From Escherichia coli (GTDB lineage: Bacteria > Pseudomonadota > Gammaproteobacteria > Enterobacterales > Enterobacteriaceae), in the NCBI GenBank assembly GCA_005400705.1, contig GCA_005400705.1_4079.1: a stretch of DNA of 64,000 nt, one strand, 5' to 3'. The notes beneath the pieces are model-generated. The model was not told the DNA's origin and ran no database searches. It saw nothing but the letters and a program-made list of their open reading frames with translations. Positions 31,300-54,336 of the stretch are shown here, piece after piece. Every line of letters begins with the position of its first letter. Within the stretch, counting starts at the first letter, position 1. Both the position numbers and the translations under genes were made by a program.

Positions 31300-31309
31300 A
31301 ATTCTCTCC

Positions 31310-32515: not shown

Positions 32516-33688
32516 TTATGGTAAAATAATAGCTTGTAACGAACTCATACCCAATGTTGGGACACTCGCCTGTGGTGCTGGTGCATTCACTTTTGGTGAT
32601 GAAACCGCATAAGTCATTCCTGTACCCAAATCTGGATCAAAAACTACAGAACAATAATCCCCATTGTATATAAGTCCATTAGTATATCCTTGTGCACTTT
32701 GAATGCATTTCGTGAACGTACCAATGTCAGTAGTGGCATTTATTAAGTTCCTCCCACGGTAGCCACAGGTGTATATGAAATTATCAACACCTATGTACAT
32801 ACTCGCAGAACCAGAAGAACTACATAGATAAGACATATAAGCACGCATGTTTTTAGGAGCAACTGACAATGTACCAGCATAGAATTTATTATTCATACTC
32901 GAAATATCACCATCACCCAAAGCACCAAAACTCCCCCAACCAGTACCATAATATCTCTTATCACTCAAGAATATAATACAGTTGTTATTACACATCTTGA
33001 CTTGATATATCAATGAAGGATCAACCCCAGGGAATGATTCAGTGTATGTTAGAACAGCCAGATCAGTACTAGCATTACATTGATGATATGTATTAGTACC
33101 AGCGGACAATATTGTACCATCAACTAATAGAATCCTCGAAGTGCCAGTACCAGCAATACAAGCAACAGCATTACCTGTATATATTTGTCTGAAAGTAAAG
33201 AAACCAACAGTCTTACTCCCCTGTCCACTCCAACCAGTATTATCAACACCACATGCCCATACTGAACCATCTTGCATGATCATCATTACACCATAGCGTT
33301 CTATCGAAATATAGACAATCTTCGTAGTATCAACTGCACTAAATCTAGAAGTTATATCAGTCCAAACCTTTACACTCACCGCCGTCGCACCGAAAGTAGG
33401 ATCTTCCCCTGCTATCATTATCCTACCATTGTTAGTCAGATACATTGTCTGACTATAACCAGTACTACAAAACTTAACACTATCAGTCTCTGGAACTTTT
33501 AACCACTCGTTGTAACGTGTTACGTTAGTGTTATTACCTAACTGATAATAGTTATTCATCCCAGATACATATAACACACCATCCTTTATTAAACTATAAG
33601 TCGCACTATAGTCACTACAGGTATAACGTGTACCCACAGGTCGCTCAACGACGTTCCCATAATCAAACATTCTAACAAAAGGTAACAT
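32516..33688 (-). CDS. RCC1-like repeat protein with MLPFVRMFDYGN leader, paralog 5
   Basis: 390 aa; GALGDG motif. Confidence 0.7.
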   Translation of the reverse strand: MLPFVRMFDYGNVVERPVGTRYTCSDYSATYSLIKDGVLYVSGMNNYYQLGNNTNVTRYNEWLKVPETDSVKFCSTGYSQTMYLTNNGRIMIAGEDPTFGATAVSVKVWTDITSRFSAVDTTKIVYISIERYGVMMIMQDGSVWACGVDNTGWSGQGSKTVGFFTFRQIYTGNAVACIAGTGTSRILLVDGTILSAGTNTYHQCNASTDLAVLTYTESFPGVDPSLIYQVKMCNNNCIIFLSDKRYYGTGWGSFGALGDGDISSMNNKFYAGTLSVAPKNMRAYMSYLCSSSGSASMYIGVDNFIYTCGYRGRNLINATTDIGTFTKCIQSAQGYTNGLIYNGDYCSVVFDPDLGTGMTYAVSSPKVNAPAPQASVPTLGMSSLQAIILP

Positions 33689-33768
33689 AATTAAATCTCC
33701 AAAATTAAAATAATTAGATAGTATTTACAAAAAATACCAGTACATATTTCAGTACTGGTATCGTAGCG
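33689..33768 (-). promoter_or_regulatory. family cassette variant
   Basis: Same hairpin type as 32441-32515. Confidence 0.45.
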
Positions 33769-34911
33769 TTAAAATGGCATCTTAACCTCTTTATATACTA
33801 ATATATCACCGGATAAACCAGGAAACGCAGAACCATTACCACATGCATATATAGTACTATCATTCCACACTGCTTGATGGTAATTGCCTATAGTACATTT
33901 ATAATTCGATAAATCAGTCACACCAGGTGTTAGTACATAATATACTGGTCCACTAGGTAAATTAAAATCAAATCTACCAAAGTAGTTCAAACCAGATGAA
34001 TAGGACTTGTCATTAGCAAATATTACAGTACCATCTTCTGTAAAAGAACTGTGAGAAATGTCTTTGAGATTGTTCACAACACCAGACGGTATTGATGTAT
34101 TCAACGTAAAGGACGTCAATGGTGCTGCACTTGGTGTGTTGTTCGCCGTGTAACCATAATATGCATAACCAGCTACATATACACTCGAATCTGAACAAAA
34201 TAAAAATGCACTCCTATAACCCAACCTAATACTCTCTATAGTCTTACTAAAAGTAACTTTAGTAAAGGTAGGAACTAAACCACTATATCCTACCCCACAT
34301 GTACCAAAATCATTCTTCCCAGTACTGTACAATTCGTTATTATTTGTAAGGTAAAATGACGCAGCAGCACCGCTATCTAAAGTACTGTAAACGTCTTTTA
34401 CATTACTCGCAATCAATTTAAATGCACTCAATACGGTAGCCGAACCATTGTTAGACAGCGTTGTTGAATCCGTGCCTTGTCCTATTGTATATAAATCTCC
34501 AGTACTAGTCAAAACAAATATACCATTAGTCGCCATAACAATTCTGTCATTCTTTAAATTAAATGAACTAAAAAGTGTACTTATATCAGTAAAGGTAGTA
34601 TAACGCCCACTCTGCCCTATACTCGATAAATTCCCACTCAAATAAACCTTATTATCATTACCAACAGCTACATAACAACCCCACCCAGCATATATCTGAT
34701 CAATGCCTTGTATCGGTATTTGTAACCATTCACTACCAGTTACCGAAGCAGTACTTCCAGTTCCAAGTTCACCAGAGTTATTAGCTCCGAATACATATAA
34801 ATTCCCACTATCCGATAAAACAACTGTATTACCAACTCCAGTTTTTATATCCTTGATACCATTCTTAGGAGCAACATTCCCATAATCAAACATTCTAACA
34901 AAAGGTAACAT
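33769..34911 (-). CDS. RCC1-like repeat protein with MLPFVRMFDYGN leader, paralog 6
   Basis: 380 aa; GELGTG motif. Confidence 0.7.
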   Translation of the reverse strand: MLPFVRMFDYGNVAPKNGIKDIKTGVGNTVVLSDSGNLYVFGANNSGELGTGSTASVTGSEWLQIPIQGIDQIYAGWGCYVAVGNDNKVYLSGNLSSIGQSGRYTTFTDISTLFSSFNLKNDRIVMATNGIFVLTSTGDLYTIGQGTDSTTLSNNGSATVLSAFKLIASNVKDVYSTLDSGAAASFYLTNNNELYSTGKNDFGTCGVGYSGLVPTFTKVTFSKTIESIRLGYRSAFLFCSDSSVYVAGYAYYGYTANNTPSAAPLTSFTLNTSIPSGVVNNLKDISHSSFTEDGTVIFANDKSYSSGLNYFGRFDFNLPSGPVYYVLTPGVTDLSNYKCTIGNYHQAVWNDSTIYACGNGSAFPGLSGDILVYKEVKMPF

Positions 34912-34983
34912 ATTTCCCTCCTTTATTCATTATACTATATTTAATCAAAAAGAAAAGCCAGTACTTGAGTACTGGCATAGTTT
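34912..34983 (-). promoter_or_regulatory. family cassette (hairpin, TATAAT, AAGGAGG)
   Basis: gccagtactcaagtactggc hairpin, tatagtataatgaataaaggagg. Confidence 0.5.
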
Positions 34984-36111
34984 TCAAAAAGGTAAATCAA
35001 TTTGCTTAGTAATAATAGTATCTAACGGTATTGAACACAATGAGAAATTCTTTCCACCCGTATTTTCAGGATTATATCCATTCATCCATACATTATTACC
35101 TTCGTAAAATGTATTCCAGTATAAAGCCCCACTATATCGTGTATTCGAATTGAACGATGGAAAGTTGAATTCTTGGAATGATGTAAAATATGGAATGGAA
35201 CTTGAACTACTTCCCGTAAATGGGGTATACCCAGTTGCTATTAGTTTGTTTGTATCTGCATTAATTAAAAATACAACACTAGTCGAATAGTCCAACGAAT
35301 CAGGATGATATATATTACTCATATCACCTATAGTAAAACCAACATCAAAAACTTTACTATGTGCACCACTACCAGCAAAAGTAGTTCCAGTTGCATATAT
35401 TTTATTATCAGATGTTATCATTACAAAACCAGCACCAGAAACAAAACTGCATTTTATATCATAAGATATATCATCAAACAACGGAACAAATGTGGTTGCA
35501 TCACCCGATGTTGCTTTAACTTGAAAGCTGTTATTTGAACCTGAACCATATACAGTTCCATCGTTTTTAATCTTAAACAATGTATCGCCAAGGTAACCGC
35601 CAAATATATTATCCACATTAGTGTCAAGTACAGTCCACGCTGAAACATAATTTTTATGTCCTAAACCTAATGCACCACTTCGATTCCATCCTCTTCCATA
35701 AAGTGTTCCGTCTTTCATTAATATAAATGCTGTATAACCACATAACATTTTTTTAATTTGGGTAACATCTATACCAGTGAAATACACACCCCAGTCAGTA
35801 TATCCTTGTTGGAAAGTATCAGAATTCGTGAATGCATATGTTGAACCTGAACCATATATTTTATCACCTTTAATAACAACGGAAAACAATCCTAACCATA
35901 AGTCATCAACTTCAGTTGTGATTTGTTGAACTGCTCCTAACGATACAAACTGTGTACTTAAACCCGCATTATAGTTTGAATCTTCACCGTGTGCATATAC
36001 AGTGCCATCTTGCATTAGAAACATTTCAAGAGTGTAACTAACAACACTTTTCTTTATATTATTAACTTCGATTATATTCCCATAATCAAACATTCTAACA
36101 AAAGGTAACAT
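34984..36111 (-). CDS. RCC1-like repeat protein with MLPFVRMFDYGN leader, paralog 7
   Basis: 375 aa; GALGLG motif. Confidence 0.7.
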   Translation of the reverse strand: MLPFVRMFDYGNIIEVNNIKKSVVSYTLEMFLMQDGTVYAHGEDSNYNAGLSTQFVSLGAVQQITTEVDDLWLGLFSVVIKGDKIYGSGSTYAFTNSDTFQQGYTDWGVYFTGIDVTQIKKMLCGYTAFILMKDGTLYGRGWNRSGALGLGHKNYVSAWTVLDTNVDNIFGGYLGDTLFKIKNDGTVYGSGSNNSFQVKATSGDATTFVPLFDDISYDIKCSFVSGAGFVMITSDNKIYATGTTFAGSGAHSKVFDVGFTIGDMSNIYHPDSLDYSTSVVFLINADTNKLIATGYTPFTGSSSSSIPYFTSFQEFNFPSFNSNTRYSGALYWNTFYEGNNVWMNGYNPENTGGKNFSLCSIPLDTIITKQIDLPF

Positions 36112-36183
36112 AATTCCCTCCTTTATTCATTATACTTTATTTAATACAAATAAGAATTCCTGTATCGAGTACTGGCATTCAAT
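36112..36183 (-). promoter_or_regulatory. family cassette (hairpin, TATAAT, AAGGAGG)
   Basis: gccagtactcgatacagg hairpin-like, tataatgaataaaggagg. Confidence 0.45.
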
Positions 36184-37332
36184 TTATTGTAAAAAGGACA
36201 TATCTACTTCTGTATAACTAAGAATGTTTTGACCAGCAATTCCACCCATTACTACTATTGCATACCCACAATAATATAATTTCCCAGTGTCCGTAAGTAT
36301 AAGTGAACCAGAAGGTGTTCTTACCAAATTACACGAACTATTAAAAGAAGTATACGAAGGAGTATAGGAGTACTGATCAATATTATTACCAACACCTAAT
36401 TGACCACCCCTATTCGAACCAGATGCATAAAGTACTTCATCTGCTTTGACAATATGTGATGCCATGTTACCAACACATGCATATACACCATATACCCCTG
36501 TACTCAATAATGTAGGAGTCTTGTATTGAATATCAGTACTAGTAGATGTTCCACCTGTGCCAAATTCATTACCATATTGTGCTCCGTACTGCTTCCCACA
36601 TGCGTACAAATTATTATCGGACTTAATAAAAAATGTACTCTGATAACTTACATCAAAATCTATAACATCCGAAGAAATCATCGTTACCCCAGTAATCGAA
36701 GTTTGATTACCAGTACCCAACTGGTAGTAATAGTTAAAACCACAACCCCATAAAGTATTATCTTCTCGCAAATAAATGTTACCAACAGCCTTTTTAACAG
36801 ATGTTATAGTACTGACCTTCTTGAAGGTATTAAATGAATCAATGTTAGTACCATCTCCAAAGGAGGATATGTTCGATGCGTTATTAGCACCACAACAATA
36901 TAATGTCCCATCCTTCAGTACTAAATTTACCTTCATATCATTAAAACTGCTCATATACTCAATATCAGATACACTAATACCACCTGATGTTATCCACGTA
37001 GTACAGTCCGTCCATAACGTCTTCCTATCAGTTACCCCAGTAAATGCCTCCGTGTTACCAGTGATAAACACTTTACCAGTACCCTTTTCTTCATACAATT
37101 GACAATCACTACTGTTATCTTCCAATAAAACCCTCTGTACATTCTCTGCACAAAGAATAAATTTACTCGATGCTACACCTGTTCCAGTACCCCAATTCGT
37201 CGCAGAAGATGCATACAACTTATGTGTTAGTGTATCATGCAAATACATAGAACCACTAGAATATATTTTAAAACGCCCAGAGTTGGTAGGTGCTTCATTC
37301 CCATAATCAAACATTCTAACAAAAGGTAACAT
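36184..37332 (-). CDS. RCC1-like repeat protein with MLPFVRMFDYGN leader, paralog 8
   Basis: 382 aa; GQLGVGNN motif; first gene of the minus-strand block. Confidence 0.7.
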   Translation of the reverse strand: MLPFVRMFDYGNEAPTNSGRFKIYSSGSMYLHDTLTHKLYASSATNWGTGTGVASSKFILCAENVQRVLLEDNSSDCQLYEEKGTGKVFITGNTEAFTGVTDRKTLWTDCTTWITSGGISVSDIEYMSSFNDMKVNLVLKDGTLYCCGANNASNISSFGDGTNIDSFNTFKKVSTITSVKKAVGNIYLREDNTLWGCGFNYYYQLGTGNQTSITGVTMISSDVIDFDVSYQSTFFIKSDNNLYACGKQYGAQYGNEFGTGGTSTSTDIQYKTPTLLSTGVYGVYACVGNMASHIVKADEVLYASGSNRGGQLGVGNNIDQYSYTPSYTSFNSSCNLVRTPSGSLILTDTGKLYYCGYAIVVMGGIAGQNILSYTEVDMSFLQ

Positions 37333-37375: not shown

Positions 37376-37404
37376 TTGACATCCTTTCAGTACTGGTGTA
37401 CTAT
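37376..37404 (+). promoter_or_regulatory. candidate promoter TTGACA-17-TACTAT in divergent region
   Basis: ttgaca 37376-37381, AGTACTG in spacer. Confidence 0.4.
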
Positions 37405-37429
37405 AGAAGGAATATAAGGAGAACTACAC

Positions 37430-37657
37430 ATGACAGCTACACTTAAGTACTACATTAATACTCTAAATGAACTAGAGTACGCGAAGTTTCTCGCGGATTG
37501 TTCGTGGCTAATAGAGCTAAAAACACATAACAGTACTGGATGTAACCTTATGCTGAACAGTGCACTTGATACCCTTGTAGTGAGTATTTTACACAGCAAC
37601 ATCTGCGTGGATAGCAATAAACAATTATCAAAAATCTTAGTACTGGTAGCTATATGA
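37430..37657 (+). CDS. small protein, tandem family A
   Basis: 75 aa, RBS aaggag. Confidence 0.5.
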   Translation: MTATLKYYINTLNELEYAKFLADCSWLIELKTHNSTGCNLMLNSALDTLVVSILHSNICVDSNKQLSKILVLVAI

Positions 37658-37866
37658 ACACTATGAACATTAAACAGTACTACATCGATGCACTACCAAC
37701 AAAAGGTCTACGAGAAAGCCTACTGTATACACAAAATAATTTTATACACTACAAACGTTATCCTAAACTCCTGAACTCGTACAGGAATAATAACATAAGA
37801 AATGCTTTACAAGGGGTAGAAAGTATGCAATACTATTACATCCTTACCCTTTTAATCGAGTACTAA
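37654..37866 (+). CDS. small protein, tandem family A
   Basis: 70 aa; QYYIDALP N-terminus, C-terminal LTLLIEY. Confidence 0.5.
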   Translation: MNTMNIKQYYIDALPTKGLRESLLYTQNNFIHYKRYPKLLNSYRNNNIRNALQGVESMQYYYILTLLIEY

Positions 37867-37867
37867 T

Positions 37868-38053
37868 ATGTATAAAGAATTCTACTGTAGTAAGCTGCAC
37901 AAACAATACAGAGATTCATTTCCCAATGAACCTATGGACATGAATAGTCCCTTTTATAATTTTGACTTCAGACTGGAGACACGTTATGCAATAGAACATC
38001 AATTTCCTGAAACTAAGTACTTAGCTATCATGAACCTCATCTTTAAGTTCTAA
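37868..38053 (+). CDS. small protein, tandem family A
   Basis: 61 aa. Confidence 0.45.
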   Translation: MYKEFYCSKLHKQYRDSFPNEPMDMNSPFYNFDFRLETRYAIEHQFPETKYLAIMNLIFKF

Positions 38054-38274
38054 AAGAGTACTATATGAAAACTATGAACATTCATCAGTACTACTTAGAT
38101 ATTCTCCCTAAAGATGTGCAGAACATCCTTAAACAAGAATTCAGTACTTTAAAAAAACCTTAAAAGATCCGCACCGAATGTACTCATCCTGCACCAAATA
38201 AATGTAGTTGATAATATTCTACAAGGTGTACCAGGAACCGAGTACTTTAATATAGTAAGGCTAATTACATTACA

Positions 38275-38460
38275 ATGAATCATATAAGCTACTATTACCA
38301 AAAACTATCCGACCGAGACAAGTACAGCCACAACTCCCATGTATGGTACTACAAACGCGGTAGTATAAGGGACAAACAACATTACTTCTGTACTGCTATA
38401 AAAGAAACACTAACAACTAAGTACACGTACAGAGCAGTACTGAAACTTATTGATATGTAA
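38275..38460 (+). CDS. small protein, tandem family A
   Basis: 61 aa; C-terminal YTYRAVLKLIDM. Confidence 0.45.
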   Translation: MNHISYYYQKLSDRDKYSHNSHVWYYKRGSIRDKQHYFCTAIKETLTTKYTYRAVLKLIDM

Positions 38461-38470
38461 AGAGAATACT

Positions 38471-38656
38471 ATGAATACATTTGAGTACTATACAAATAAA
38501 CTATCTATGCCAGAAAGATCTCATCTCTATGTGTGGAGAAATGCGTATAAAAGCGGCAATAAACTTATACAAAGAAATTCCCTTACAGTGTGTACAAATT
38601 TAATTAAAGCAGAGTACCGCACATATATTGAAGTACTGAAACTAATCTCTATCTAA
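38471..38656 (+). CDS. small protein, tandem family A
   Basis: 61 aa from ATG 38471; C-terminal EVLKLISI. Confidence 0.45.
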   Translation: MNTFEYYTNKLSMPERSHLYVWRNAYKSGNKLIQRNSLTVCTNLIKAEYRTYIEVLKLISI

Positions 38657-38664
38657 GGTACTCT

Positions 38665-38844
38665 ATGCAAGAATTCTATATCTATAAACTTCAGCACAAA
38701 GATAGATACAACTATAATAAATTCCAAAGGTACTACACAGTCGGGAACAAAAGAGATAAAAAACGATACTTTCTATCATGTACAGTAGAAGCACAAAACG
38801 AAAAGTACACGTACAGAGAAGTACTGAAACTCATCTCAATCTAA
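38665..38844 (+). CDS. small protein, tandem family A
   Basis: 59 aa (below ORF-track cutoff); C-terminal YTYREVLKLISI. Confidence 0.4.
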   Translation: MQEFYIYKLQHKDRYNYNKFQRYYTVGNKRDKKRYFLSCTVEAQNEKYTYREVLKLISI

Positions 38845-38852
38845 GGAATAAT

Positions 38853-39032
38853 ATGCAAGAATACTATATAGAACACATAAGCATTAAAGACCGTTTCATG
38901 TACGACACCTTCGTGAAGTACTACAACCTGGCAACTAACAGTACTAAAAATATTAATCTCAATAGCTGCATTCATCACGCACTAACAAAAGATAATCCCT
39001 TCAGGGAAATCCTCGCACTAGCATCTGTATAA
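38853..39032 (+). CDS. small protein, tandem family A
   Basis: 59 aa from ATG 38853 with RBS aagga. Confidence 0.45.
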   Translation: MQEYYIEHISIKDRFMYDTFVKYYNLATNSTKNINLNSCIHHALTKDNPFREILALASV

Positions 39033-39042
39033 AGGAAACCAA

Positions 39043-39702
39043 ATGAAACTTAATGCACACAGCAAACAATACCTTAAGCACTTTAAGTACCTCAACAGTA
39101 TTCAAGCAGAATCTATTACATCTGCATATACGTATCACCCTAATGTACTAAAGAAACGAAATAAAAAGAAAAAATCCAGAAATGTTCTCGTATCTAAGAA
39201 CCTCAAATCGTACTTGAAGAAAAATAATATAGCTCTTGCTTTTATTAATATCTATAATACTGATTTAAAAGTATTGAGTACTAATACCAGCACAAAAGCA
39301 CTAAAGAATGCATCTATCTATATACACATGGATAATATCCCGTGCACTATAATTCTATCTTTCGGGAATGTATACTTCTTCGGGAATTGTAATAGCACCC
39401 ATGATATCAGTACTGCACAATTCCAAATCGGCGATATGTACTGCATGGGTTCAGAAAAAATACACGATAACATGCACTTCTTCCAAAAGCAACGTACTAA
39501 CGAAACTGATACAGTACTGCAATTCCTCAAAGAATTACAAAACAAAGAATTATCCGAGGAAGAAGAATTCATGTACAGTACTGTAATCGATAATCCAGAA
39601 CTCTATAAAAACGCGTACAATCTAACAAAACATGTACAGGAACTTATCAGTACTGATAAGAAATTTCATCACCTCATTACGTATATTTCAAACTATGTAT
39701 AA
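39043..39702 (+). CDS. hypothetical protein
   Basis: 219 aa, RBS aaggaaa; interrupts family A array. Confidence 0.55.
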   Translation: MKLNAHSKQYLKHFKYLNSIQAESITSAYTYHPNVLKKRNKKKKSRNVLVSKNLKSYLKKNNIALAFINIYNTDLKVLSTNTSTKALKNASIYIHMDNIPCTIILSFGNVYFFGNCNSTHDISTAQFQIGDMYCMGSEKIHDNMHFFQKQRTNETDTVLQFLKELQNKELSEEEEFMYSTVIDNPELYKNAYNLTKHVQELISTDKKFHHLITYISNYV

Positions 39703-39877
39703 AGAATACTACAAAGATAAAATCCCAATGCATCTACAACACCATATACCAAACGTTGCATTGGGTATCAAAGATCACGCAAAGATAATGTTCCAACAAT
39801 GTACTAAGTACACGCTCATATACGATGATAATCCATATATGCTGTACTACGTAGTAATGCTAACATTCAGGTACTAA
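39695..39877 (+). CDS. small protein, tandem family A
   Basis: 60 aa from ATG 39695; MYKEYYKDKIP ... LTFRY. Confidence 0.45.
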   Translation: MYKEYYKDKIPMHLQHHIPNVALGIKDHAKIMFQQCTKYTLIYDDNPYMLYYVVMLTFRY

Positions 39878-39878
39878 T

Positions 39879-40058
39879 ATGAATACTTATAAAGAATTCT
39901 ACCTCTCGTACCTTAATTCCGATATAGTAACATCCAATACATTCAGTACTAAAATTATCTATAATGAATTAATGAAAGAATGTATTAAAGGTGCTATTAA
40001 CCCTAAAGATACGTATGACTTGTACTATGCAGTACTAACCCTTGTTTTCACGAAATAA
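39879..40058 (+). CDS. small protein, tandem family A
   Basis: 59 aa (below cutoff); TAATATG overlap. Confidence 0.4.
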   Translation: MNTYKEFYLSYLNSDIVTSNTFSTKIIYNELMKECIKGAINPKDTYDLYYAVLTLVFTK

Positions 40059-40066
40059 CACATAAT

Positions 40067-40258
40067 ATGAATAACCACAAAGAATACTACATAGAGAAAC
40101 TCCCAATGTATCTCCAACACCTTGTACCAACAGAACCATTGGGTATAGAAAAAAACTACGAAAAAGACTACTTCATTCAGTGCACTAAATCCTCGATATA
40201 TATTGAAGACTATAATCGAGTACTGTATCACATCCTTTTACTAATATATAGGTACTAA
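40067..40258 (+). CDS. small protein, tandem family A
   Basis: 63 aa; C-terminal LLLIYRY. Confidence 0.5.
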   Translation: MNNHKEYYIEKLPMYLQHLVPTEPLGIEKNYEKDYFIQCTKSSIYIEDYNRVLYHILLLIYRY

Positions 40259-40259
40259 T

Positions 40260-40442
40260 ATGCACAAAGAATACTACACACAATTTCTCCCCAGCATTTT
40301 TGAACACTACGCCAGATACAAAGTCCCTATGGATAACGATTTGGCAGTACTGGGATTCAATAACTGCATAGAACGAAGTATAGAAAATAGTAGTAGTTAT
40401 GACCAGCTATATAACACTATCCTACTTATATTCAGGTACTAA
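40260..40442 (+). CDS. small protein, tandem family A
   Basis: 60 aa; C-terminal ILLIFRY. Confidence 0.5.
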   Translation: MHKEYYTQFLPSIFEHYARYKVPMDNDLAVLGFNNCIERSIENSSSYDQLYNTILLIFRY

Positions 40443-40443
40443 T

Positions 40444-40629
40444 ATGCATAAAGAATACTACACACAATTTGTTAAAGGGAACTACAAACATGCCGTACCC
40501 AGAACCCCTTTAAATTCTCATGACCCAAGTACTATATTCTTGTTTAATGACGCAATACGTACAGTACTCAATACTAAAGATGAAGATGTGCAGTACGTAT
40601 TCTTACTATTACTTATATACAGACACTAA
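40444..40629 (+). CDS. small protein, tandem family A
   Basis: 61 aa from ATG 40444; C-terminal LLLLIYRH. Confidence 0.45.
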   Translation: MHKEYYTQFVKGNYKHAVPRTPLNSHDPSTIFLFNDAIRTVLNTKDEDVQYVFLLLLIYRH

Positions 40630-40634
40630 CTAAT

Positions 40635-40844
40635 ATGAATAAAGAACATAAAGAATTCTACTCCAAATACATAAGCCCCTCAGAACAAATGTTTCTAAGG
40701 ACTACTCCACCTTTAAGTACTAATACATTTTTCGGCAGAGTATGCTACAATAATTGTATTCAAATGACTTTAAACGCAAACGAAGATGGTAACAGTACTA
40801 ACCTGTACTCAGGTATCATAGGTATACTATTCCTGTATGAATAA
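40635..40844 (+). CDS. small protein, tandem family A
   Basis: 69 aa. Confidence 0.45.
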   Translation: MNKEHKEFYSKYISPSEQMFLRTTPPLSTNTFFGRVCYNNCIQMTLNANEDGNSTNLYSGIIGILFLYE

Positions 40845-41025
40845 TTACAAAGACTTCTATTTGAATACACTACCTACTGTACTTTCTCTAAGTGCTCAAT
40901 GTAAAATCCCGCTGGATAATGCTTACGCCAGATATAGCTATTCCATAACTGTTAATCGATGTATAGAGAATCATTGCAGTACTAACCAGTACTATAACAT
41001 AATCCTACTTATATTCAGGTACTAA
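40837..41025 (+). CDS. small protein, tandem family A
   Basis: 62 aa; C-terminal ILLIFRY. Confidence 0.5.
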   Translation: MNNYKDFYLNTLPTVLSLSAQCKIPLDNAYARYSYSITVNRCIENHCSTNQYYNIILLIFRY

Positions 41026-41026
41026 T

Positions 41027-41209
41027 ATGAATAAAGAACATAAAGAATTCTATATACGAAAACTAACATTCGTCCCCGTAAGAATATATAAAGAATGCGA
41101 CCCAAGATTATACCTATGGCACTTCAATGAGTGCATAAAAGATTCTATATACCATAAGAACTATAAAGAACAATTGTGCTCAGTACTAACACTAGTACTA
41201 TCATATTAA
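41027..41209 (+). CDS. small protein, tandem family A
   Basis: 60 aa. Confidence 0.45.
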   Translation: MNKEHKEFYIRKLTFVPVRIYKECDPRLYLWHFNECIKDSIYHKNYKEQLCSVLTLVLSY

Positions 41210-41224
41210 TTAATAGAGAATACT

Positions 41225-41416
41225 ATGTATAAAAACTTCTATATAAGTAAACTAAAAGAAAATGAACAAGTATGGATTAGATCTATAATTCCACTGGCAT
41301 TTAATAGATATGCATTTAACAGATGTACCGAGATTGCTATAGACCCTTATAATATTAAAGAGAATGTACAGTATAATCAGTACTACTATATCTTAATGCT
41401 TATATATAGAAAGTAA
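41225..41416 (+). CDS. small protein, tandem family A
   Basis: 63 aa; C-terminal ILMLIYRK. Confidence 0.45.
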   Translation: MYKNFYISKLKENEQVWIRSIIPLAFNRYAFNRCTEIAIDPYNIKENVQYNQYYYILMLIYRK

Positions 41417-42054
41417 TTAAACACAAGTAGACAGGGGAAGCTCCTAGTGAACAACCTTTATGTACAGGCGAATTGTTAAAATTCAGCCTGGACAAATGCG
41501 ATCACTAGGATTCTCCCCAGGCTAAACCCCGTAATCATAGGTAGTCATAAGTAATCATATATAAACATTTATATGAGCACCGTAGAATCACAGAATGATT
41601 ATATATGATTCAGTACTGATTAGTATAGACAAGATTGCTCAAGAATGCACGGAAATGTGTGTGAATGATTCAGTACTGATATCCCACTAAGTAGGCAGAG
41701 GAAGTCTGCCGTACTTTTTAGTTTCCAAGCTCCTTTTCCATTTTTCAAATTACATCAAATGTAATCAAAAGTAATCACGCAATGATTAGTACTGAATTAT
41801 TACTTTCACCTTAATTACAATTACCCTTTTACCCTTCGGGGTAAAATTCCATTACCCCTTGAGGCTCCAGCAAAAAGTTGGTTAGTACTCCATCCTAAAT
41901 CTCGATCCTAAAAATTTTGGAGTACCTATGAAATAAAAGTTGGATCTTCGAAAGTTGAAATTTACGTTGGGACGTTTATGATTTGTGGGATATAATGATG
42001 TTTGTAGTCGGGTAGTTCTCAAGAATATCAGTACTGAATGATGAAAGAAAGCTA

Positions 42055-42082
42055 TTGACTTTATGATTCAGTACTGTATAAT
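42055..42082 (+). promoter_or_regulatory. orphan promoter TTGACT-16-TATAAT with no ORF downstream
   Basis: ttgact 42055-42060, tataat 42077-42082, followed by gttttacat as in the PeSL-type promoters. Confidence 0.5.
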
Positions 42083-42088
42083 GTTTTA

Positions 42089-42200
42089 CATAGAGAGATG
42101 AGTTGCCGCAAACAATTCATTCACTCTACTTCCTGTCGTGAGACAGTACAGAAAGATAGTTCCTCCTATGGGTGGTACATCTTTTAGAACCTCTTTTTTC
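42089..42200 (+). ncRNA. candidate small RNA
   Basis: About 110 nt from the orphan promoter to the T-run ctcttttttc at 42191-42200, no ORF. Confidence 0.25.
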
Positions 42201-42410
42201 GTAATATGAACAGTACTGATATTAACAGAATGGTGTCAGTACTGATTTTAATTTAATGCATTATGCCACCAGCACAAGCTGGTGGATTCCCTCTAACAGT
42301 ATTCAGTACTACATGATGGTCTTCATCCTCCTAGGGTAACATAGTGAGGGCTATGATGGCAGTACTGAATACTCCCTTTCAAAAGATAGATCTATGGTAT
42401 AGTACTGACG

Positions 42411-42600
42411 GATTTTGGGCGTAGTTACCCTGGATGGATTTTGGACGTAGATATGTCTAGCCCTCCAGAAGTCTGGAAGTAAAGATGGCTATCCATCTAG
42501 ACGGCTAAACGGCTAGATTTCTGGATGGCTGGATGGCTAGACGTTTGGACGGCTAAACGGCTAGATGGTTACACGTCTGGAAGTATAGACGGCTAAATCA
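42411..42600. repeat. iteron-like direct repeats
   Basis: gacggctaaacggctagat twice (42500-42518, 42548-42566); ggatggct three times; gtctggaagta twice; gattttgg(g/a)cgtag twice. Confidence 0.6.
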
Positions 42601-43337
42601 AAATTTTATTTTGTTTTTTCCAATAGTTCCCCTACCGCGTGGGGATAGTTTCCCCGCAGTATCTGGAGTTAGATTTTTCTGAATCTGGAATCATTATCTT
42701 ATAAACTGGGGGCAATGTCAACCGCCTGGACGGATATTTTTAAAAATTTTTTCAGTACTGAATTTTGGGCGTAACTATGCACCCGGTGGGCTTGAGTCTT
42801 TCTCGACTTGATGGAACTATTATACAGTACTGGAAAAATAAAGCAATACCCTGGAAGCAAAAAAGTTTTAATTAATTTGCTTGCTATCCTGGGCCGGACT
42901 ATGGTACTATATTTCAGTACTGAGAAAGTGCGTTTACCTGCTAGGGTGCGGGAGTGTATCCTTTTTTTATATCTTGAATTTTGGGCGTAATTCCGCACCC
43001 TCTGGGGTTTCCGCTTTCTCGCGTCTATGTAGTAATTATACGCTTTTTCAGGATCAAGTCAATACCTAAAAACAAAATAATTGAAAATAATTTAACGCGT
43101 TTAAACGGCCCGTAAAGCCCTGGAATGATTGGAATGGTGCAAATGTATAGCTTAGGTGTATTAATGCGTTAGAATGCGTCTGAGGCCGTTTTACGGGGTA
43201 TAGGGATGATTTGGTGGATTGATTCAGTACTGAATGATAGTACTACTATATAGAAAGATAGTTCCCCTGAATGGTTGCAGTACTGAATGATAGTTCCCCT
43301 ATATAGAAAGAAAACTATTTTAAAAGTATTTGTAGAA

Positions 43338-43402
43338 AGTACTTGCAAACTAAGTTTAACGGCGTATAATGTTTTACATCGAGAGCGGGAACACTTCCCG
43401 CT
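43338..43402 (+). promoter_or_regulatory. PeSL-like cassette (promoter AGTACTTGCAAAC..TATAAT, stem-loop GCGGGAA-CAC-TTCCCGC)
   Basis: tataat 43365-43370 within gtataatgttttacatc; hairpin 43385-43401. Confidence 0.6.
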
Positions 43403-43425
43403 ACATATTACGAGAGATTAAAACG

Positions 43426-43788
43426 ATGGCGACTCAAATCACTAAAATTATTGCTAACCTGGTTAACTTTCGCGACGAGATGAAAGATCTTCCGGCAGAA
43501 ACGGTAAAAATTCACATTTCAGCTTATCGGGAACTTATTGCAATGTTACCGCTTAAGCGTGAACAATACGCCGCGACCGTGATGCTTGATGCGATGATCC
43601 ATAAGATGATCGCCAGTGATTTAACGATGGTTTATCAGTATATGGGCGAAAATTTCGCGGTGTATAGTAAACCAGTACCAGGAATGGAAAGTACAGAAGT
43701 ATTACACGGTTTAAATTTAAAACAAGATGCATGGGATAATATGCCTCGTTTCCTGGTATGGGCTGACAGTGGCAAGATTTACGAATAA
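43426..43788 (+). CDS. hypothetical protein
   Basis: 120 aa from ATG 43426 downstream of the cassette hairpin; ORF-track start 43369 is the ATG inside tataATGtttt. Confidence 0.55.
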   Translation: MATQITKIIANLVNFRDEMKDLPAETVKIHISAYRELIAMLPLKREQYAATVMLDAMIHKMIASDLTMVYQYMGENFAVYSKPVPGMESTEVLHGLNLKQDAWDNMPRFLVWADSGKIYE

Positions 43789-43797
43789 GTTTTAGAA

Positions 43798-43860
43798 AGT
43801 ACTTGCAAACTAAGTTTAAAAGCGTATAATGTTTTACATCAGGTGGGGAATAGTTCCCCA
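43798..43860 (+). promoter_or_regulatory. PeSL-like cassette
   Basis: agtacttgcaaactaagtttaaaagcgtataat then hairpin tggggaa-tag-ttcccca 43844-43860. Confidence 0.6.
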
Positions 43861-43881
43861 CTATATAAGAGGATTAAAAAA

Positions 43882-44121
43882 ATGGCTAAATCAAAAATGT
43901 TCTTAGGTCACAAAAACAAAACTCATTGGAATGTAAGCCTTTGGATTAATAACGATGAGTCATTGTACCGGTTGGCCCAGGACTTTATTAACGATAGCAC
44001 TAATCGCAATGATGCGGCCCGTCATATGATGTTATTTTTAGAACAGACTGGACAAGATAAAACACCGGACGGATTCAAATATAGCACTACTGCGATCCGT
44101 GCGGCGATGGTTGGAATGTAA
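43882..44121 (+). CDS. hypothetical protein
   Basis: 79 aa from ATG 43882, RBS gagga. Confidence 0.55.
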   Translation: MAKSKMFLGHKNKTHWNVSLWINNDESLYRLAQDFINDSTNRNDAARHMMLFLEQTGQDKTPDGFKYSTTAIRAAMVGM

Positions 44122-44136
44122 TAGAATATATTTAAA

Positions 44137-44170
44137 GTACTATCGCAAAAAATGATAGTACTTTATAATA
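44137..44170 (+). promoter_or_regulatory. promoter with upstream palindrome AGTACTATC...GATAGTACT
   Basis: Palindrome 44137-44163, tataat 44165-44170; same design at 55759-55794. Confidence 0.5.
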
Positions 44171-44206
44171 GTGTTTTATTCATACACAAACGATAAGGGC
44201 AACAGC

Positions 44207-44473
44207 ATGAATATTAAGTATTTTGCGACGCGTGAACAAGCTCGGATCGCCGCACGCCAGGACGGGGCAACGTTTAAAGATATGGGCGTACAATCGGAAC
44301 GTGGTAAACGTTGGGCCATTATAAAGCGTAGTACCGCCAGATCATTACAGTACTGGTTAGCGGCGTTAAAAAGTCCTGATAGTGTATCGCGTCGAGTGGT
44401 AGAAATAAAGCTCGACCGAAAGGGCAACCGCGTGACCGTGTACCGTACTAAAAAGATAGCAGTACTTGAATAA
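44207..44473 (+). CDS. hypothetical protein (paralog of 55839 product)
   Basis: 88 aa; FATREQARIAARQDGATFKDMG ... DRKGNRVTVY shared with the 55839-56234 product. Confidence 0.55.
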   Translation: MNIKYFATREQARIAARQDGATFKDMGVQSERGKRWAIIKRSTARSLQYWLAALKSPDSVSRRVVEIKLDRKGNRVTVYRTKKIAVLE

Positions 44474-44474
44474 A

Positions 44475-44538
44475 AGTACTTGCATACTATGTTTAAAGGC
44501 GTATAATGTTTTACATCGAGAGCGGGAACACTTCCCGC
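44475..44538 (+). promoter_or_regulatory. PeSL-like cassette
   Basis: aaagtacttgcatactatgtttaaaggcgtataat, hairpin gcgggaacacttcccgc 44522-44538. Confidence 0.6.
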
Positions 44539-44559
44539 CTATAACCTGGAGTAATAAAA

Positions 44560-44790
44560 ATGACTAATATGTATATGACTGAAGTTAAAACTGTAAAAGA
44601 TACTACCACGAATAAAACTACTTACTTACAGCGGATCTGTGGTGTCTGGCAACGTATCAGCAAAATAAAGTACTATAAATTGACATCACATGCTAACCGT
44701 TCGGATTCATTCAGTACTGAAATAAAAGGTAATAAAGTACACCAATACGGCACTTATTATTATTATAGCCTGGATGCGATTGCAGTATAA
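44560..44790 (+). CDS. hypothetical protein
   Basis: 76 aa, RBS ggag. Confidence 0.55.
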   Translation: MTNMYMTEVKTVKDTTTNKTTYLQRICGVWQRISKIKYYKLTSHANRSDSFSTEIKGNKVHQYGTYYYYSLDAIAV

Positions 44791-44820
44791 GCAGTTTACA
44801 AATCTTTACAATTGCCGGTA

Positions 44821-44849
44821 TTGACTTATTTTGTCAGTACTGGCATAAT
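44821..44849 (+). promoter_or_regulatory. promoter TTGACT-17-CATAAT (AGTACTGG class)
   Basis: ttgact 44821-44826, agtactggcataat. Confidence 0.45.
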
Positions 44850-45032
44850 GTATTCATTGGCAGATAAGCCGTAGCCCATAGGGTGCGGGAGTGTATCTAT
44901 AGAAAAAGTAGTTTATTACAGTTACAATTGTGCACCCGGTGGGTTAGCTGTTGTCATGGGGTATATTATACCAGTACTGGATAGTGCTGTCAATACCTTT
45001 TTACTATTCAGTACTGAAAACTATTTTTAAAA

Positions 45033-45065
45033 AGTACTTGCAAACTATGTTTAAAGGCGTATAAT
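45033..45065 (+). promoter_or_regulatory. PeSL-type promoter driving the structured element
   Basis: agtacttgcaaactatgtttaaaggcgtataat. Confidence 0.55.
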
Positions 45066-45150
45066 GTTTTACATCAGGACGGGGAACGAAATAAGTAACT
45101 TCCCGTTAAGTAGCCCAGGAGTAAGGCACACGAAAAACTCCCCTGATAAA
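45066..45150 (+). ncRNA. candidate structured small RNA, copy A (identical copy at 54907-54990)
   Basis: No ORF; closing helix atcagg...cctgat and inner hairpin acgggga...ttcccgt; about 100 nt identical in both copies. Confidence 0.35.
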
Positions 45151-45155
45151 ATAGT

Positions 45156-45183
45156 TTGACAAATGTTTTTAAAAGCGTATAAT
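45156..45183 (+). promoter_or_regulatory. sigma70-type promoter TTGACA-16-TATAAT
   Basis: ttgaca 45156-45161, tataat 45178-45183. Confidence 0.55.
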
Positions 45184-45215
45184 ACTTACATCAACTACTG
45201 AATGAGGGTTACAAA

Positions 45216-45827
45216 ATGAAAACTATCACTACTACTACTTTCGTTATGGCTTTTTCTGAATTGAACGCAGAACAACAAACGTCAGCTATCGAACTGGTTC
45301 GGGATCGGGAACGTTCAAGCGGTGATGATTTCTTTTCTGAGTCAGTGATCGAGTACTATAAAGAAACAGTACTACCAGAATATGGAATTGATGACGCTGA
45401 TTTGCAATTCAGTGGTTTTTGGTCGCAGGGTGACGGTGCATCAATCAGTACTGACCACGTTGACGCTGTGAAGTTTTTACGCAAGATTAAAGCATTAACT
45501 AAGTATCGTTCTATCCGTCACCTGCTGAATGAAGATGATTTGGCGATGAGTGTAAAGCGTTCTCACTCCCACTACTCGCATGAAAACACTGTAAGCGGGT
45601 ACATTGAATCGGGGTACACTGATTTAACCGCAAAACAAGAAACGTTAGTTAATGAGCTTGAGGAACTACTCACTGAAACTATTCGTGAATTATCCCGCAA
45701 GTTGTACCGTGATTTAGAGAATGCATATGAGGATCAATTCACTACTGAAAACATTACGGCACTGATTGAGGGTAACGAATATCAATTCAATGTTATTGAT
45801 GGCGTAGTAGAATCTATCGAATATTAA
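45216..45827 (+). CDS. hypothetical acidic protein
   Basis: 203 aa, RBS gagggt. Confidence 0.6.
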   Translation: MKTITTTTFVMAFSELNAEQQTSAIELVRDRERSSGDDFFSESVIEYYKETVLPEYGIDDADLQFSGFWSQGDGASISTDHVDAVKFLRKIKALTKYRSIRHLLNEDDLAMSVKRSHSHYSHENTVSGYIESGYTDLTAKQETLVNELEELLTETIRELSRKLYRDLENAYEDQFTTENITALIEGNEYQFNVIDGVVESIEY

Positions 45828-45883
45828 TTCAGTACTGAATCAATGGCGGGAGTGGTTCCCGCCTATAACCAGGAGTAAGCATC

Positions 45884-46117
45884 ATGATCGAACAAATTCA
45901 AACGACCACAAGCCGGAGCGGAACGAAAGTACATTACATCGCTGATACTGATAAAGGTGTACCCTATTGTGCTGTACACGTAAATACTGACGGTGACTAT
46001 TGGTTAACTGTATACGGGCGTTACTCGTTTGCTTTTAGTGCACATTGTAAGATCCTGGAAGTAGTGAAGCCTACCGGTAAGAATATCACGCCGGGAAAAT
46101 GTTTTACTAAGCACTAA
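45884..46117 (+). CDS. hypothetical protein (paralog of 47039 product)
   Basis: 77 aa; GVPYCAVHVNT.G.YW.TVYG.YSF ... PTGKNIT shared with 47039. Confidence 0.6.
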   Translation: MIEQIQTTTSRSGTKVHYIADTDKGVPYCAVHVNTDGDYWLTVYGRYSFAFSAHCKILEVVKPTGKNITPGKCFTKH

Positions 46118-46118
46118 A

Positions 46119-46185
46119 AAGTACTTGCATACTAAGTTTAAAAGCGTATAATACTTTATATCGAGGCGGGGGAATGGTTCCCGCC
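46119..46185 (+). promoter_or_regulatory. PeSL-like cassette
   Basis: aaagtacttgcatactaagtttaaaagcgtataat, hairpin ggcggggg-aatgg-ttcccgcc. Confidence 0.6.
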
Positions 46186-46203
46186 TTTACTGAGGATTAT
46201 CTA

Positions 46204-46491
46204 ATGAGCAAAGTAATTAACTATACAGTACTAAGCAAGTCATTATCTATTAGCCAGTGCACCGATGGTTTTTGGCTGTACGATGAAACGCGTGGCATGA
46301 ATTTAGCTATGCGGGAGAAAACTGCTGAGGCGGCGTATTTACAAGCCCTGGAATACTACCAGGAACGTTTAAAGGAAGTAGAAAACAATTATCAAAATTT
46401 AAAAGAGAAAGTAGATAATTTCGTTTGTCAATTCGTTGACGATGACGAGGAAGACGGGCACTACTGCAACCGTTGCGGATCTTACAATTAA
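46204..46491 (+). CDS. hypothetical protein
   Basis: 95 aa from ATG 46204; C-terminal CNRCGSYN. Confidence 0.5.
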   Translation: MSKVINYTVLSKSLSISQCTDGFWLYDETRGMNLAMREKTAEAAYLQALEYYQERLKEVENNYQNLKEKVDNFVCQFVDDDEEDGHYCNRCGSYN

Positions 46492-48888: not shown

Positions 48889-48911
48889 TCCAAATCAAAG
48901 GAATTAAAACA

Positions 48912-54335: not shown

Positions 54336-54336
54336 A

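Follow-up and report, generated by a model that had tools for sequence, protein, structure and literature searches.

Organization of the small-gene array

The window, a 64,000-nucleotide stretch of DNA, comes from an Asteriusvirus (121Q/PBECO4-like) jumbo coliphage. Combining the ORF listing with refined start codons allowed us to place 17 family units on the + strand between 37430 and 41416 (Table 1). Sixteen of the 17 are intact ORFs of 59-75 aa and the remaining one is frameshifted, in agreement with a preliminary description of this DNA as carrying about 17 tandem paralogous genes of that size, one of them truncated, with a 219-aa gene interrupting the series. Consecutive genes are spaced at -8 to +15 nt, the exceptions being the frameshifted copy and the 219-aa gene. 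The back-to-back arrangement with start-stop overlaps described earlier was confirmed at the individual junctions, with ATGA at m01/m02 and TAATATG at m02/m03, m09/m10, m11/m12, m12/m13 and m15/m16. Start/stop coupling and Shine-Dalgarno-like motifs are preserved in the array genes, and the array is, with high confidence, an operon-like packing of tandem paralogues. Several of the products (m02, m05-m07, m17) are strongly basic, with a pI of 9.3-9.6 and a net charge of +4 to +7.

Table 1. Coordinates of the array genes and associated elements in the window
Feature	Position	Strand	Description
sigma70-type promoter of array	37376..37404	+	TTGACA-17 nt-TACTAT; CAGTACTG in spacer; 10/12 consensus matches
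ribosome-binding site AAGGAG	~37416-37421	+	downstream of array promoter
m01	37430..37657	+	75 aa; first operon gene; probable divergent family member
m02	37654..37866	+	70 aa; subfamily III; ATGA overlap with m01
m03	37868..38053	+	61 aa; subfamily I (PHROG 11711)
m04	38065..38278	+	subfamily III copy with frameshift; ORF 38065-38163 = 32 aa
m05	38275..38460	+	61 aa; subfamily II; basic, pI 9.6
m06	38471..38656	+	61 aa; subfamily II; start refined to ATG at 38471
m07	38665..38844	+	59 aa; subfamily II
m08	38853..39032	+	59 aa; subfamily II; start refined to 38853
219-aa gene	39043..39702	+	phrog_29152; embedded in array, non-family
m09	39695..39877	+	60 aa; subfamily I; 8-nt overlap with 219-aa gene
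m10	39879..40058	+	59 aa; subfamily I
m11	40067..40258	+	63 aa; subfamily I; representative used for AlphaFold model
m12	40260..40442	+	60 aa; subfamily I
m13	40444..40629	+	61 aa; subfamily I; start refined to 40444
m14	40635..40844	+	69 aa; subfamily I
m15	40837..41025	+	62 aa; subfamily I; 8-nt overlap with m14
m16	41027..41209	+	60 aa; subfamily I
m17	41225..41416	+	63 aa; subfamily I; closes array
terminator-like hairpin with T-run	41691..41720	+	terminator scan; coincides with fEgEco12 nucleotide 1 = terminal-repeat boundary

The truncated copy, m04, differs from its intact counterpart in BF17 by one extra A in an A-run near 38152, as seen by alignment. The run is A7 in the window and A6 in BF17 and fEgEco12, with 5, 6 or 7 residues among records. 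Beyond the frameshift, m04 can be read on in the +1 frame as far as a TGA overlapping the m05 start codon (ATGA), and the subfamily III HMM matches both pieces. The embedded 219-aa gene is a separate case. It matches phrog_29152 at 4e-116, a PHROG without function annotation, and has no Pfam, NCBIfam or PDB sequence match; hhalign finds no relation between it and the family profiles. The gene is conserved, with homologues only in the Asteriusvirus lineage, and its AlphaFold model is unusable (pLDDT 41).

Sequence relationships within the family

Pairwise phmmer comparison resolved the copies into three groups and an orphan, that is, subfamilies I (10 members), II (4) and III (2, including the frameshifted m04), and the lone m01. 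Identity between paralogues within the array is 17-45%. When the subfamily I HMM was run against all 987 six-frame ORFs of the window, its 10 members were recovered at E 1e-17 to 1e-26 and no other ORF fell below E 0.02. The subfamilies are joined only at the profile level: hhalign aligns I with II over 54 columns (94% probability, E 1e-7) and I with III over 58 columns (93% probability, E 4e-7), and links II and III at P 0.003. As a control for these scores, 100 column shuffles were made, and none reached the observed score for any pair. Judged by these profile comparisons, subfamilies I, II and III are a single homologous family. The alignment and HMM that had been proposed as a check on the array give a family signal far above chance, but one that is not uniform across the copies. 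For m01, which has no pairwise phmmer match to the other array members, hhalign gives a weak link to subfamily III (35% probability, E 4e-4, 62 columns) that nevertheless exceeds all 100 of 100 column shuffles. Orthologues of m01 were found in all genomes examined, and we regard it as a borderline case, a probable divergent member of the family.

All 10 subfamily I members (m03, m09-m17) match PHROG 11711 end to end at E 6e-28 to 4.5e-6, with matches spanning about positions 1-62 of the 62-position profile. This PHROG, which is without function annotation, is the same family as subfamily I but misses subfamilies II and III and m01; no PHROG match at E<=0.01 was obtained for m01, m02 or m04-m08. 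Both features pointed out in the preliminary description, a hydrophobic C-terminus and an N-terminal motif, here (K)E(Y/F)Y..L(P), hold up in a 34-sequence alignment. Tyr8 is invariant, K5, E6, L12, F36 and L59 are strongly conserved, and so is the C-terminal tail I-L-x-L-I-(Y/F)-(R/K)-Y.

Predicted fold and protein character

Structure prediction for a representative, m11, yielded a confident AlphaFold model (pLDDT 91.9, pTM 0.75) with helices at residues 3-9, 14-17, 30-45 and 49-62. No structural relative of the predicted fold was found, and there were no fold matches to known inhibitors. We are confident in predicting that the family is a four-helix mini-domain of about 60 residues. In the 34-sequence alignment, hydrophobic or aromatic residues predominate at the conserved positions, as would fit a shared core, and polar residues predominate at the most variable ones. 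Small membrane proteins of the holin, spanin or exclusion type, which would show a signal/lipobox or a transmembrane helix of about 18 or more residues, were considered and ruled out. The 19-residue Kyte-Doolittle mean peaks at 0.17-0.78 in family members and at 1.28 in m01, and the hydrophobic tail, modelled as the last of the four helices, is only about 11 residues long. The array products appear non-structural, which is consistent with the absence of gp540c-548c from the portion of the phAPEC6 virion mass-spectrometry table covered. That portion does list a 4.7-kDa protein and the neighbouring RCC1-like proteins, and virion mass spectrometry easily misses small proteins.

Genome position and distribution

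In all Asteriusvirus genomes examined, the distant JNE01 among them, the array has the same position, after a divergent RCC1-like array of virion genes. The two arrays are divergently transcribed from a shared 98-bp intergenic region in every genome examined. RCC1-like proteins possibly form the ‘hairs’ of these phages. At its other end, the array closes 274 bp before the terminal-repeat boundary (~41690), and so it does not lie inside the terminal repeat as a module of the SPO1/T5 type would. This boundary follows from blastn alignment of fEgEco12 1-3000 to window 41690-44678, the termini of fEgEco12 having been determined by PhageTerm and restriction digests (PMC13070987).

Searches for relatives of the family led back to the same lineage. 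An exhaustive profile search of 1.84 billion representatives returned 31 matches at E<=0.001; two of these were rejected as spurious repeat proteins, leaving 29 family representatives. Word-indexed searches of 5.8 billion sequences gave 39 and 37 clusters, each of them Asteriusvirus-like, and tblastn matches were confined to Asteriusvirus records. On the strength of these sequence searches, the family is restricted to the Asteriusvirus lineage.

Repertoire turnover and selection

Copy number ranges from 15 to 22 per genome (11 reliable genomes), and the copies fall into at least 57 orthogroups at 62% identity (11-13 genomes) that show cassette-like presence and absence; one orthogroup, I17, is relocated. 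The window itself is a mosaic, with m08 identical to BF17/fEgEco12, m14, m15 and m17 identical to slurp01, and m14-m17 identical to SD-15_S21. Repeats at gene junctions are 52-82 nt long and 64-83% identical, and an exact 32-nt repeat is present at 40629 and 41021. The array ORFs remain intact in 13 genomes. For orthologues of >=80% identity the pooled dN/dS is 0.33, compared with 0.17 for five flanking genes, and single-gene values above the pooled figure rest on few substitutions. The pooled value represents relaxed purifying selection and does not demonstrate positive selection.

The locus had been described as an extreme local amplification of a small protein. Its character as a set of tandem paralogues stands, but because the copies are so deeply diverged the array represents old diversification rather than recent amplification, and its dynamics today are those of a repertoire. 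Since this layout recurs in all Asteriusvirus genomes examined, JNE01 among them, the expansion predates the radiation of the genus. An old, diversified, recombining multigene family is thus the description that we consider very probably correct. The array would have originated by tandem duplication in an Asteriusvirus ancestor, with reshuffling continuing through recombination at gene junctions. The junction, comprising the C-terminal helix, stop, start and N-terminal KEYY motif, is the stretch best conserved at the DNA level, and recombination there would give each phage its own selection from a large pan-repertoire. GenBank already lists the genes as hypothetical proteins and the PHROG catalogue already includes subfamily I, so the finding is solid but only moderately surprising. 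No description of the small-gene family or its cassette-like variation was found in the literature searched.

Promoter and expression

The -35 hexamer, spacer and -10 hexamer of the predicted array promoter are kept in 12 genomes, including JNE01. Six other + strand sites of the same class (TTGACA-N8-CAGTACTG-TATAAT) occur in the window, and promoters of this type also serve the small-gene region of the adjacent terminal repeat. A consensus scan gave fewer sigma70-like sites for the region than for shuffles (22 versus 30), and therefore the promoter argument depends on conservation and not on the match itself. Related phage CBB has RpoD-like promoters before short hypothetical genes, interpreted as an early host-takeover region (PMC5259590). 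Going by the promoter consensus, the array is most likely transcribed early in infection, by host sigma70 RNA polymerase acting at this promoter.

Possible roles of the array

The hypothesis that we favour, and put forward tentatively, is that the array supplies, early in infection, a repertoire of proteins that interact with the host or counter its defences. Each paralogue would be a small module that binds host proteins in the service of takeover or counter-defence, and diversification would broaden the range of hosts or host variants that the phage can handle. No similarity to known anti-defence, takeover or regulatory proteins was detected among Pfam, NCBIfam, annotated PHROGs, PDB sequences or folds. 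An anti-CRISPR or anti-defence locus identifiable by known markers was rejected, as neither the array genes nor the 219-aa gene contain a Pfam/NCBIfam domain and no associated helix-turn-helix (aca-like) regulator was found. Co-transcription and coupling of all copies would fit subunits of one assembly equally well.

Other roles are conceivable for the small proteins. They could serve the neighbouring RCC1-like beta-propellers as chaperones, assembly factors or minor adaptor subunits, with one paralogue per cognate propeller. The two arrays are directly adjacent and diverge from the same 98-bp region in every genome examined, both consist of multi-copy tandem paralogues, and translationally coupled co-expression would suit subunits or chaperones; moreover, RCC1-like gp549 and gp551 appear in the covered part of the phAPEC6 virion table. 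We nonetheless consider this role quite unlikely, as the copy numbers are unequal (8 propeller versus 17 small genes in the window), the small genes have their own operon with a sigma70-type promoter like those of the terminal-repeat small-gene region, and their products are not seen in that same part of the virion table. Yersinia phage fHe-Yen9-04, in addition, has an RCC1-like array but no family member by tblastn, and within the record none is annotated beside the array. A role as DNA/RNA-binding regulators or architectural proteins of diversified specificity, possibly recognising the AGTACT/CAGTACTG palindrome, would fit the basic members listed above. This palindrome saturates the genome; hairpins contain it, and so do promoter spacers, that of the array among them. 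The ~35-copy zinc-ribbon expansion of Bacillus phage G, whose products are putative DNA binders and for which a similar diversification of specificity was suggested, offers a precedent (PMC7824862). We assign a low probability to nucleic-acid binding.

The array could also be evolutionary debris, a recombination-prone duplication tract whose ORFs have little or no function. Copies are freely gained and lost between close relatives, dN/dS is double that of neighbouring genes, and one copy is frameshifted in the window. Several observations make this very improbable: 16 of the 17 ORFs are intact, as are orthologues across the reliable genomes despite the divergence of the paralogues (17-45%), and dN/dS remains well below 1. 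Start/stop coupling, Shine-Dalgarno-like motifs and the promoter are all preserved, and the conserved positions fit the hydrophobic core of a confidently predicted fold.

Comparison with other multigene regions

Numerous short genes without assigned function, behind promoters of host type (predicted in the case of the array) and at or near a terminal repeat, are also characteristic of early modules at the ends of large phage genomes: the host-takeover module in the terminal redundancy of Bacillus phage SPO1, the T5 pre-early region and the CBB RpoD-promoter region. In those modules the genes are mainly unrelated and often have a promoter each, whereas the array consists of a single paralogous family, organised as one operon that lies just beyond the terminal repeat. 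Tandem duplication is known to contribute to the growth of jumbo genomes and has been noted for phAPEC6 (PMC7247149). The array shares lineage-specific tandem duplication with other jumbo-phage expansions, such as the phage G zinc ribbon (PMC7824862) and the Asteriusvirus RCC1-like array. Jumbo phages are rich in orphan genes, and tandem families whose content differs from one near-identical isolate to the next are among the most promising sources of host-range determinants and new immunity inhibitors.

African swine fever virus (MGF100/110/360/505) and poxviruses (‘genomic accordions’) carry multigene families near their genome ends, with inferred roles against host defences. Like the array, these are diverged tandem paralogues by terminal repeats whose copy number and repertoire vary between isolates. 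The array is unrelated to them in sequence and fold, its proteins are much smaller (~60 aa), and the host is a bacterium. By this analogy, the array might be to phages what such terminal families are to large eukaryotic DNA viruses, a recombining repertoire of a four-helix mini-domain not seen before that is specific to each isolate, with each paralogue neutralising a different host defence protein or host-factor variant and the repertoire helping to set host range, a reading that we regard as somewhat unlikely. Should the proteins target host factors, they would amount to a ready-made set of small binders sharing one scaffold; otherwise the array would be a clean case of junction recombination reshaping a phage gene family. 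It is a compact experimental handle, about 4 kb behind one promoter, with a small protein fold predicted at high confidence and natural variants that differ in the copies they carry.

Layout of the small-gene array

Window 37430-41416 holds 17 small plus-strand genes (m01-m17) and one embedded gene of 219 aa. With high confidence, we read this array as an old, diversified tandem multigene family that encodes a novel small helical domain, is organized as one translationally coupled operon and has been reshuffled between isolates. The gene list was compiled from an ORF listing, after which four start codons were refined by hand, and the listing contains no minus-strand ORF of similar length in the array region. 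Intergenic gaps range from -8 to +15 nt, the junctions include ATGA and TAATATG, and for most copies an AGG/GAG Shine-Dalgarno-like element lies within the last codons of the upstream gene (e.g. ...AGG TAC TAA T ATG). The preliminary description had reported about 17 paralogous genes of 59-75 aa with such start-stop junctions, interrupted by one 219-aa gene and one truncated copy, and as an observation it was confirmed as a whole. Its interpretation as extreme local amplification of a small protein was right in part only: a tandem, lineage-specific gene family is indeed present, but the family is an old and diversified one.

Features of the array and its surroundings (window coordinates unless a related locus is named; I-III, subfamilies assigned by phmmer)
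Feature	Coordinates	Strand	Basis or group
RCC1-like genes (8)	27679-37332	-	Pfam
Array promoter site	37376-37404	+	
m01	37430-37657	+	ORF listing; orphan
m02	37654-37866	+	ORF listing; III
m03	37868-38053	+	ORF listing; I
m04, truncated	38065-38163	+	ORF listing; III
m05	38275-38460	+	ORF listing; II
m06	38471-38656	+	ORF listing; II
m07	38665-38844	+	ORF listing; II
m08	38853-39032	+	ORF listing; II
219-aa gene, inside array	39043-39702	+	ORF listing
m09	39695-39877	+	ORF listing; I
m10	39879-40058	+	ORF listing; I
m11	40067-40258	+	ORF listing; I
m12	40260-40442	+	ORF listing; I
m13	40444-40629	+	ORF listing; I
m14	40635-40844	+	ORF listing; I
m15	40837-41025	+	ORF listing; I
m16	41027-41209	+	ORF listing; I
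m17	41225-41416	+	ORF listing; I
Stretch without convincing genes	41417-43368		
Paired CAGTACTG sites	41611/41671, 42029/42069, 42211/42237		
First terminator-like hairpin downstream of array	41691-41710		terminator scan
Repeated intergenic elements	43325-43401, 44473-44567, 45026-45087, 46115-46199, 48798-48916, 51484-51545, 54328-54404, 57866-57966		
DUF7249 paralogues (counterpart of window ~44000-46500)	L012 12645-12884 and 14686-14925; L013 11703-11942 and 13300-13539		Pfam

One diversified family

All-against-all phmmer comparison divided the small proteins into three groups and one orphan, m01, which has no pairwise match to the other members. Run against the window's 987 six-frame ORFs of 30 aa or more, each group's HMM recovers its own members alone, and cross-group matches peak at E 0.03-0.1. 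Profiles enlarged with orthologues from nine related loci (89, 32, 15 and 10 unique sequences for I, II, III and m01) were compared with hhalign, giving I-II at 94% probability (E 1.3e-7, 54 columns), I-III at 93% (E 3.7e-7, 58 columns), III-m01 at 35% (E 4e-4, 62 columns) and II-III at 10% (P 0.003, 57 columns). All four scores lie above every one of 100 column shuffles as well as the reversed control, and the family signal therefore survives proper alignment for 16 units; for m01, the profile match makes membership suggestive. The 219-aa gene is unrelated to the small family by hhalign, which rules out a family member with an insertion. Nor does it offer a clue to function, as PDB, Pfam and NCBIfam gave no match to it, its homologues are confined to Asteriusvirus and its AlphaFold model (pLDDT 41) is unusable.

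Searches of Pfam, NCBIfam and PDB sequences with the members and the family profile gave no match, and the sole match in PHROGs was an unannotated family; subfamily I corresponds to PHROG 11711, which has no annotated function. An AlphaFold2 model of the subfamily I member m11, built from 37 aligned sequences (window copies plus database homologues), reached a pLDDT of 91.9 and a pTM of 0.75; it has four helices (residues 3-9, 14-17, 30-45 and 49-62), and residues 18-29 form an extended segment. When 34 non-redundant sequences were aligned, low-entropy columns are mainly hydrophobic or aromatic (F/Y7, the invariant Y8, L12, F36, C39, I44, Y53, Y54, I56, L57, L59, I60, Y/F61 and Y63), joined by the N-terminal K5-E6, Q17, P24 and T40, whereas the highest-entropy columns (>3.3 bits) are mainly polar. 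Because of this division, we tentatively read the small proteins as having a conserved core and a variable surface. The hydrophobic C-terminus, of about 11 residues, is the last helix of the m11 model; no member contains a transmembrane-grade hydrophobic window, and a membrane-protein reading was rejected on that ground. Members vary highly in charge, with pI from 5.5 to 9.6, and tyrosine makes up 11% of array residues versus 5% in other genes. The array also favors C-ending codons (TAC, 61% versus 39% of Tyr codons; TTC, 62% versus 37% of Phe codons), and its GC skew is negative (-0.13 to -0.24), which sets it apart from the other plus-strand gene blocks and goes with this preference and the high tyrosine content.

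Distribution and copy turnover

Over 3,987 bp, the array region shares 90-96% identity with 34 phage records, every one of them an Asteriusvirus jumbo phage of Escherichia or Salmonella; 121Q, PBECO4, BF17, slurp01, phAPEC6 and fEgEco12 are among them. The 121Q orthologues (gp249-265) are each annotated 'hypothetical protein'. Database searches placed the family in this lineage only. In tblastn against 50,697 phage records, matches were restricted to 36 Asteriusvirus records. Word-indexed searches of 5.8 billion clusters matched 39 clusters with subfamily I and 37 with subfamily II, and each of these came from an Asteriusvirus genome, an E. coli assembly containing such a phage or a short contig from a metagenome. 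When 1.84 billion representative proteins were searched exhaustively with the profile, 31 matches were obtained at E<=0.001, and toward a wider distribution these included only P0058 and P0061, which were rejected as spurious repeat proteins. Two of the most divergent representatives, one from JNE01 and one from a 70-kb metagenomic contig, sit in one shared gene order: a minus-strand RCC1-like array, the plus-strand small-gene array enclosing a gene of about 220 aa, about 2 kb free of genes, and then short plus-strand genes. No description of the small-gene array was found in the Asteriusvirus literature examined, and the array is an uncharacterised case of a known kind of jumbo-phage feature, the tandem gene family specific to one lineage.

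To compare repertoires, copies in 13 genomes or contigs were classified with the enlarged HMMs and clustered at 62% identity, which gave 57 orthogroups. The 11 reliable genomes, which exclude two 'UNVERIFIED' records with many frameshifts, carry 15-22 copies each. Relative order is shared, and presence or absence is cassette-like among phages with DNA identity above 90%: I17, I40 and I42, present in most relatives, are missing from the window, which has II15, I28, I47 and I50, absent from many. I17 occupies two different places across genomes. Copy m08 is identical to its counterparts in BF17 and fEgEco12; m14, m15 and m17 are identical to those of slurp01 and SD-15_S21, and m16 to that of SD-15_S21 only. 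Judged by these identities, recombination has made the window array a mosaic: on the left it is as a whole closest to BF17/fEgEco12, and its right end matches slurp01 and the Salmonella phage SD-15_S21. Gene junctions are the best-conserved part of the units at the DNA level, with repeats of 52-82 nt at 64-83% identity and an exact 32-nt repeat at 40629 and 41021. Unequal or homeologous recombination, a mechanism we infer, could plausibly act on such repeats and would turn copies over.

The truncated m04 belongs to subfamily III and carries a single additional A in a homopolymer run (window 38143-38164); its C-terminal half is legible in the +1 frame, ending in an ATGA overlap with m05. The run has seven A's in the window and TH47, six in the intact copies of BF17 and fEgEco12, and five in CMSTMSU; six alone keeps the frame. 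The variable run length reflects either a site prone to slippage or a homopolymer sequencing error that recurs, and m04 may be a real pseudogene or the product of such an error.

Promoter, terminal repeat and selection

A sigma70-type site (TTGACA, 17 nt, TACTAT) lies 25 nt 5′ of the m01 start codon, followed by AAGGAG, and is conserved across 12 genomes, among them JNE01 with TACAAT as its -10 hexamer. Since the promoter scan found no internal promoter of like strength within the array, the 18 genes look like one operon. The spacer contains CAGTACTG, and six more plus-strand sites in the window read TTGACA-N8-CAGTACTG-TATAAT, four of them in the downstream short-gene region. As nucleotide 1 of fEgEco12, whose direct terminal repeats of 20,993 bp have been confirmed by experiment (PMC13070987), aligns to window 41690, beside the first downstream hairpin, the array on this alignment ends 274 bp before the terminal-repeat boundary, and the ~21 kb that follow in the window are, by inference, terminal repeat. 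In the roughly 2 kb after the array, each strand carries strong sigma70-like promoters; the minimum of cumulative GC skew (~42000) falls there, as does the repeat boundary. Between the short plus-strand genes of the presumed repeat lie repeated intergenic elements (~60-100 bp, 75-94% identical) that probably form promoter or regulatory cassettes. The corresponding region of related genomes contains another small duplicated family, two 79-aa DUF7249 paralogues.

Orthologues of every copy are intact in reliable genomes. Pooled dN/dS is 0.33 (Nei-Gojobori, pairs of at least 80% identity) versus 0.17 for five flanking genes by the same method; per-gene values run from 0 to 0.93, apart from 1.99 for m01, from two pairs with very few substitutions. 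By these ratios, the array is under purifying selection, relaxed about twofold relative to its neighbors.

Possible functions

We tentatively favor, while holding it somewhat short of probable, an early-expressed repertoire of small binding proteins aimed at host factors or defences, because of the type of promoter, the location next to the small genes of the terminal repeat and an apparent absence from virions, together with small size, variable polar positions on a conserved scaffold, an isolate-specific repertoire, relaxed constraint and strict lineage restriction. In the related phage CBB, RpoD-like promoters before short hypothetical genes, some in the terminal repeat, have been read as an early host-takeover region (PMC5259590). 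The small proteins could instead be helpers or adaptors for the adjacent RCC1-like virion proteins, which we consider unlikely. The phAPEC6 paper counts eleven RCC1-like copies and identifies two, gp549 and gp551, as virion proteins by mass spectrometry, and none of the array genes gp540c-548c occurs in the part of its virion table covered (PMC7247149). In a Yersinia phage of another genus that has an RCC1-like array, tblastn detected no family member, and no recognisable small-gene array lies beside it within the record.

It is similarly improbable that the products are nucleic-acid-binding regulators, perhaps tied to the AGTACT palindrome. Near-neutral duplication debris is less likely still. 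In organisation, the array most resembles three kinds of system: multigene families at the genome ends of large eukaryotic DNA viruses, early modules of small genes at the ends of SPO1, T5 and CBB, and lineage-specific expansions in other jumbo phages (PMC7824862; PMC7247149). None is homologous to the family. The interest of the array is moderate, its chief value being as a candidate for functional screening.

RCC1-like neighbors and the AGTACT palindrome

The eight tandem RCC1-like beta-propeller paralogues (369-418 aa; Pfam RCC1, RCC1_2 and WD40_RLD) have, in most of six inspected intergenic upstream regions, an AGTACT-containing hairpin and a TATAAT element. A distinct late-promoter motif was considered as a timing contrast and rejected: TATAAATA is absent before these genes, which carry the hairpin and TATAAT elements instead, and we therefore draw no temporal contrast.

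AGTACT is the top hexamer of the window (299 observed versus 21 expected) and is densest at 36000-60000, and CAGTACTG occurs 74 times versus 0.9 expected; at least 12 other 6-bp palindromes have zero copies. Nothing on this bias was found in the Asteriusvirus papers examined. The hexamer falls about evenly in all three codon frames, as well as in promoter spacers and terminator hairpins, and likewise ranks first among hexamers in 121Q, JNE01, a metagenomic relative and a Yersinia phage of another genus.
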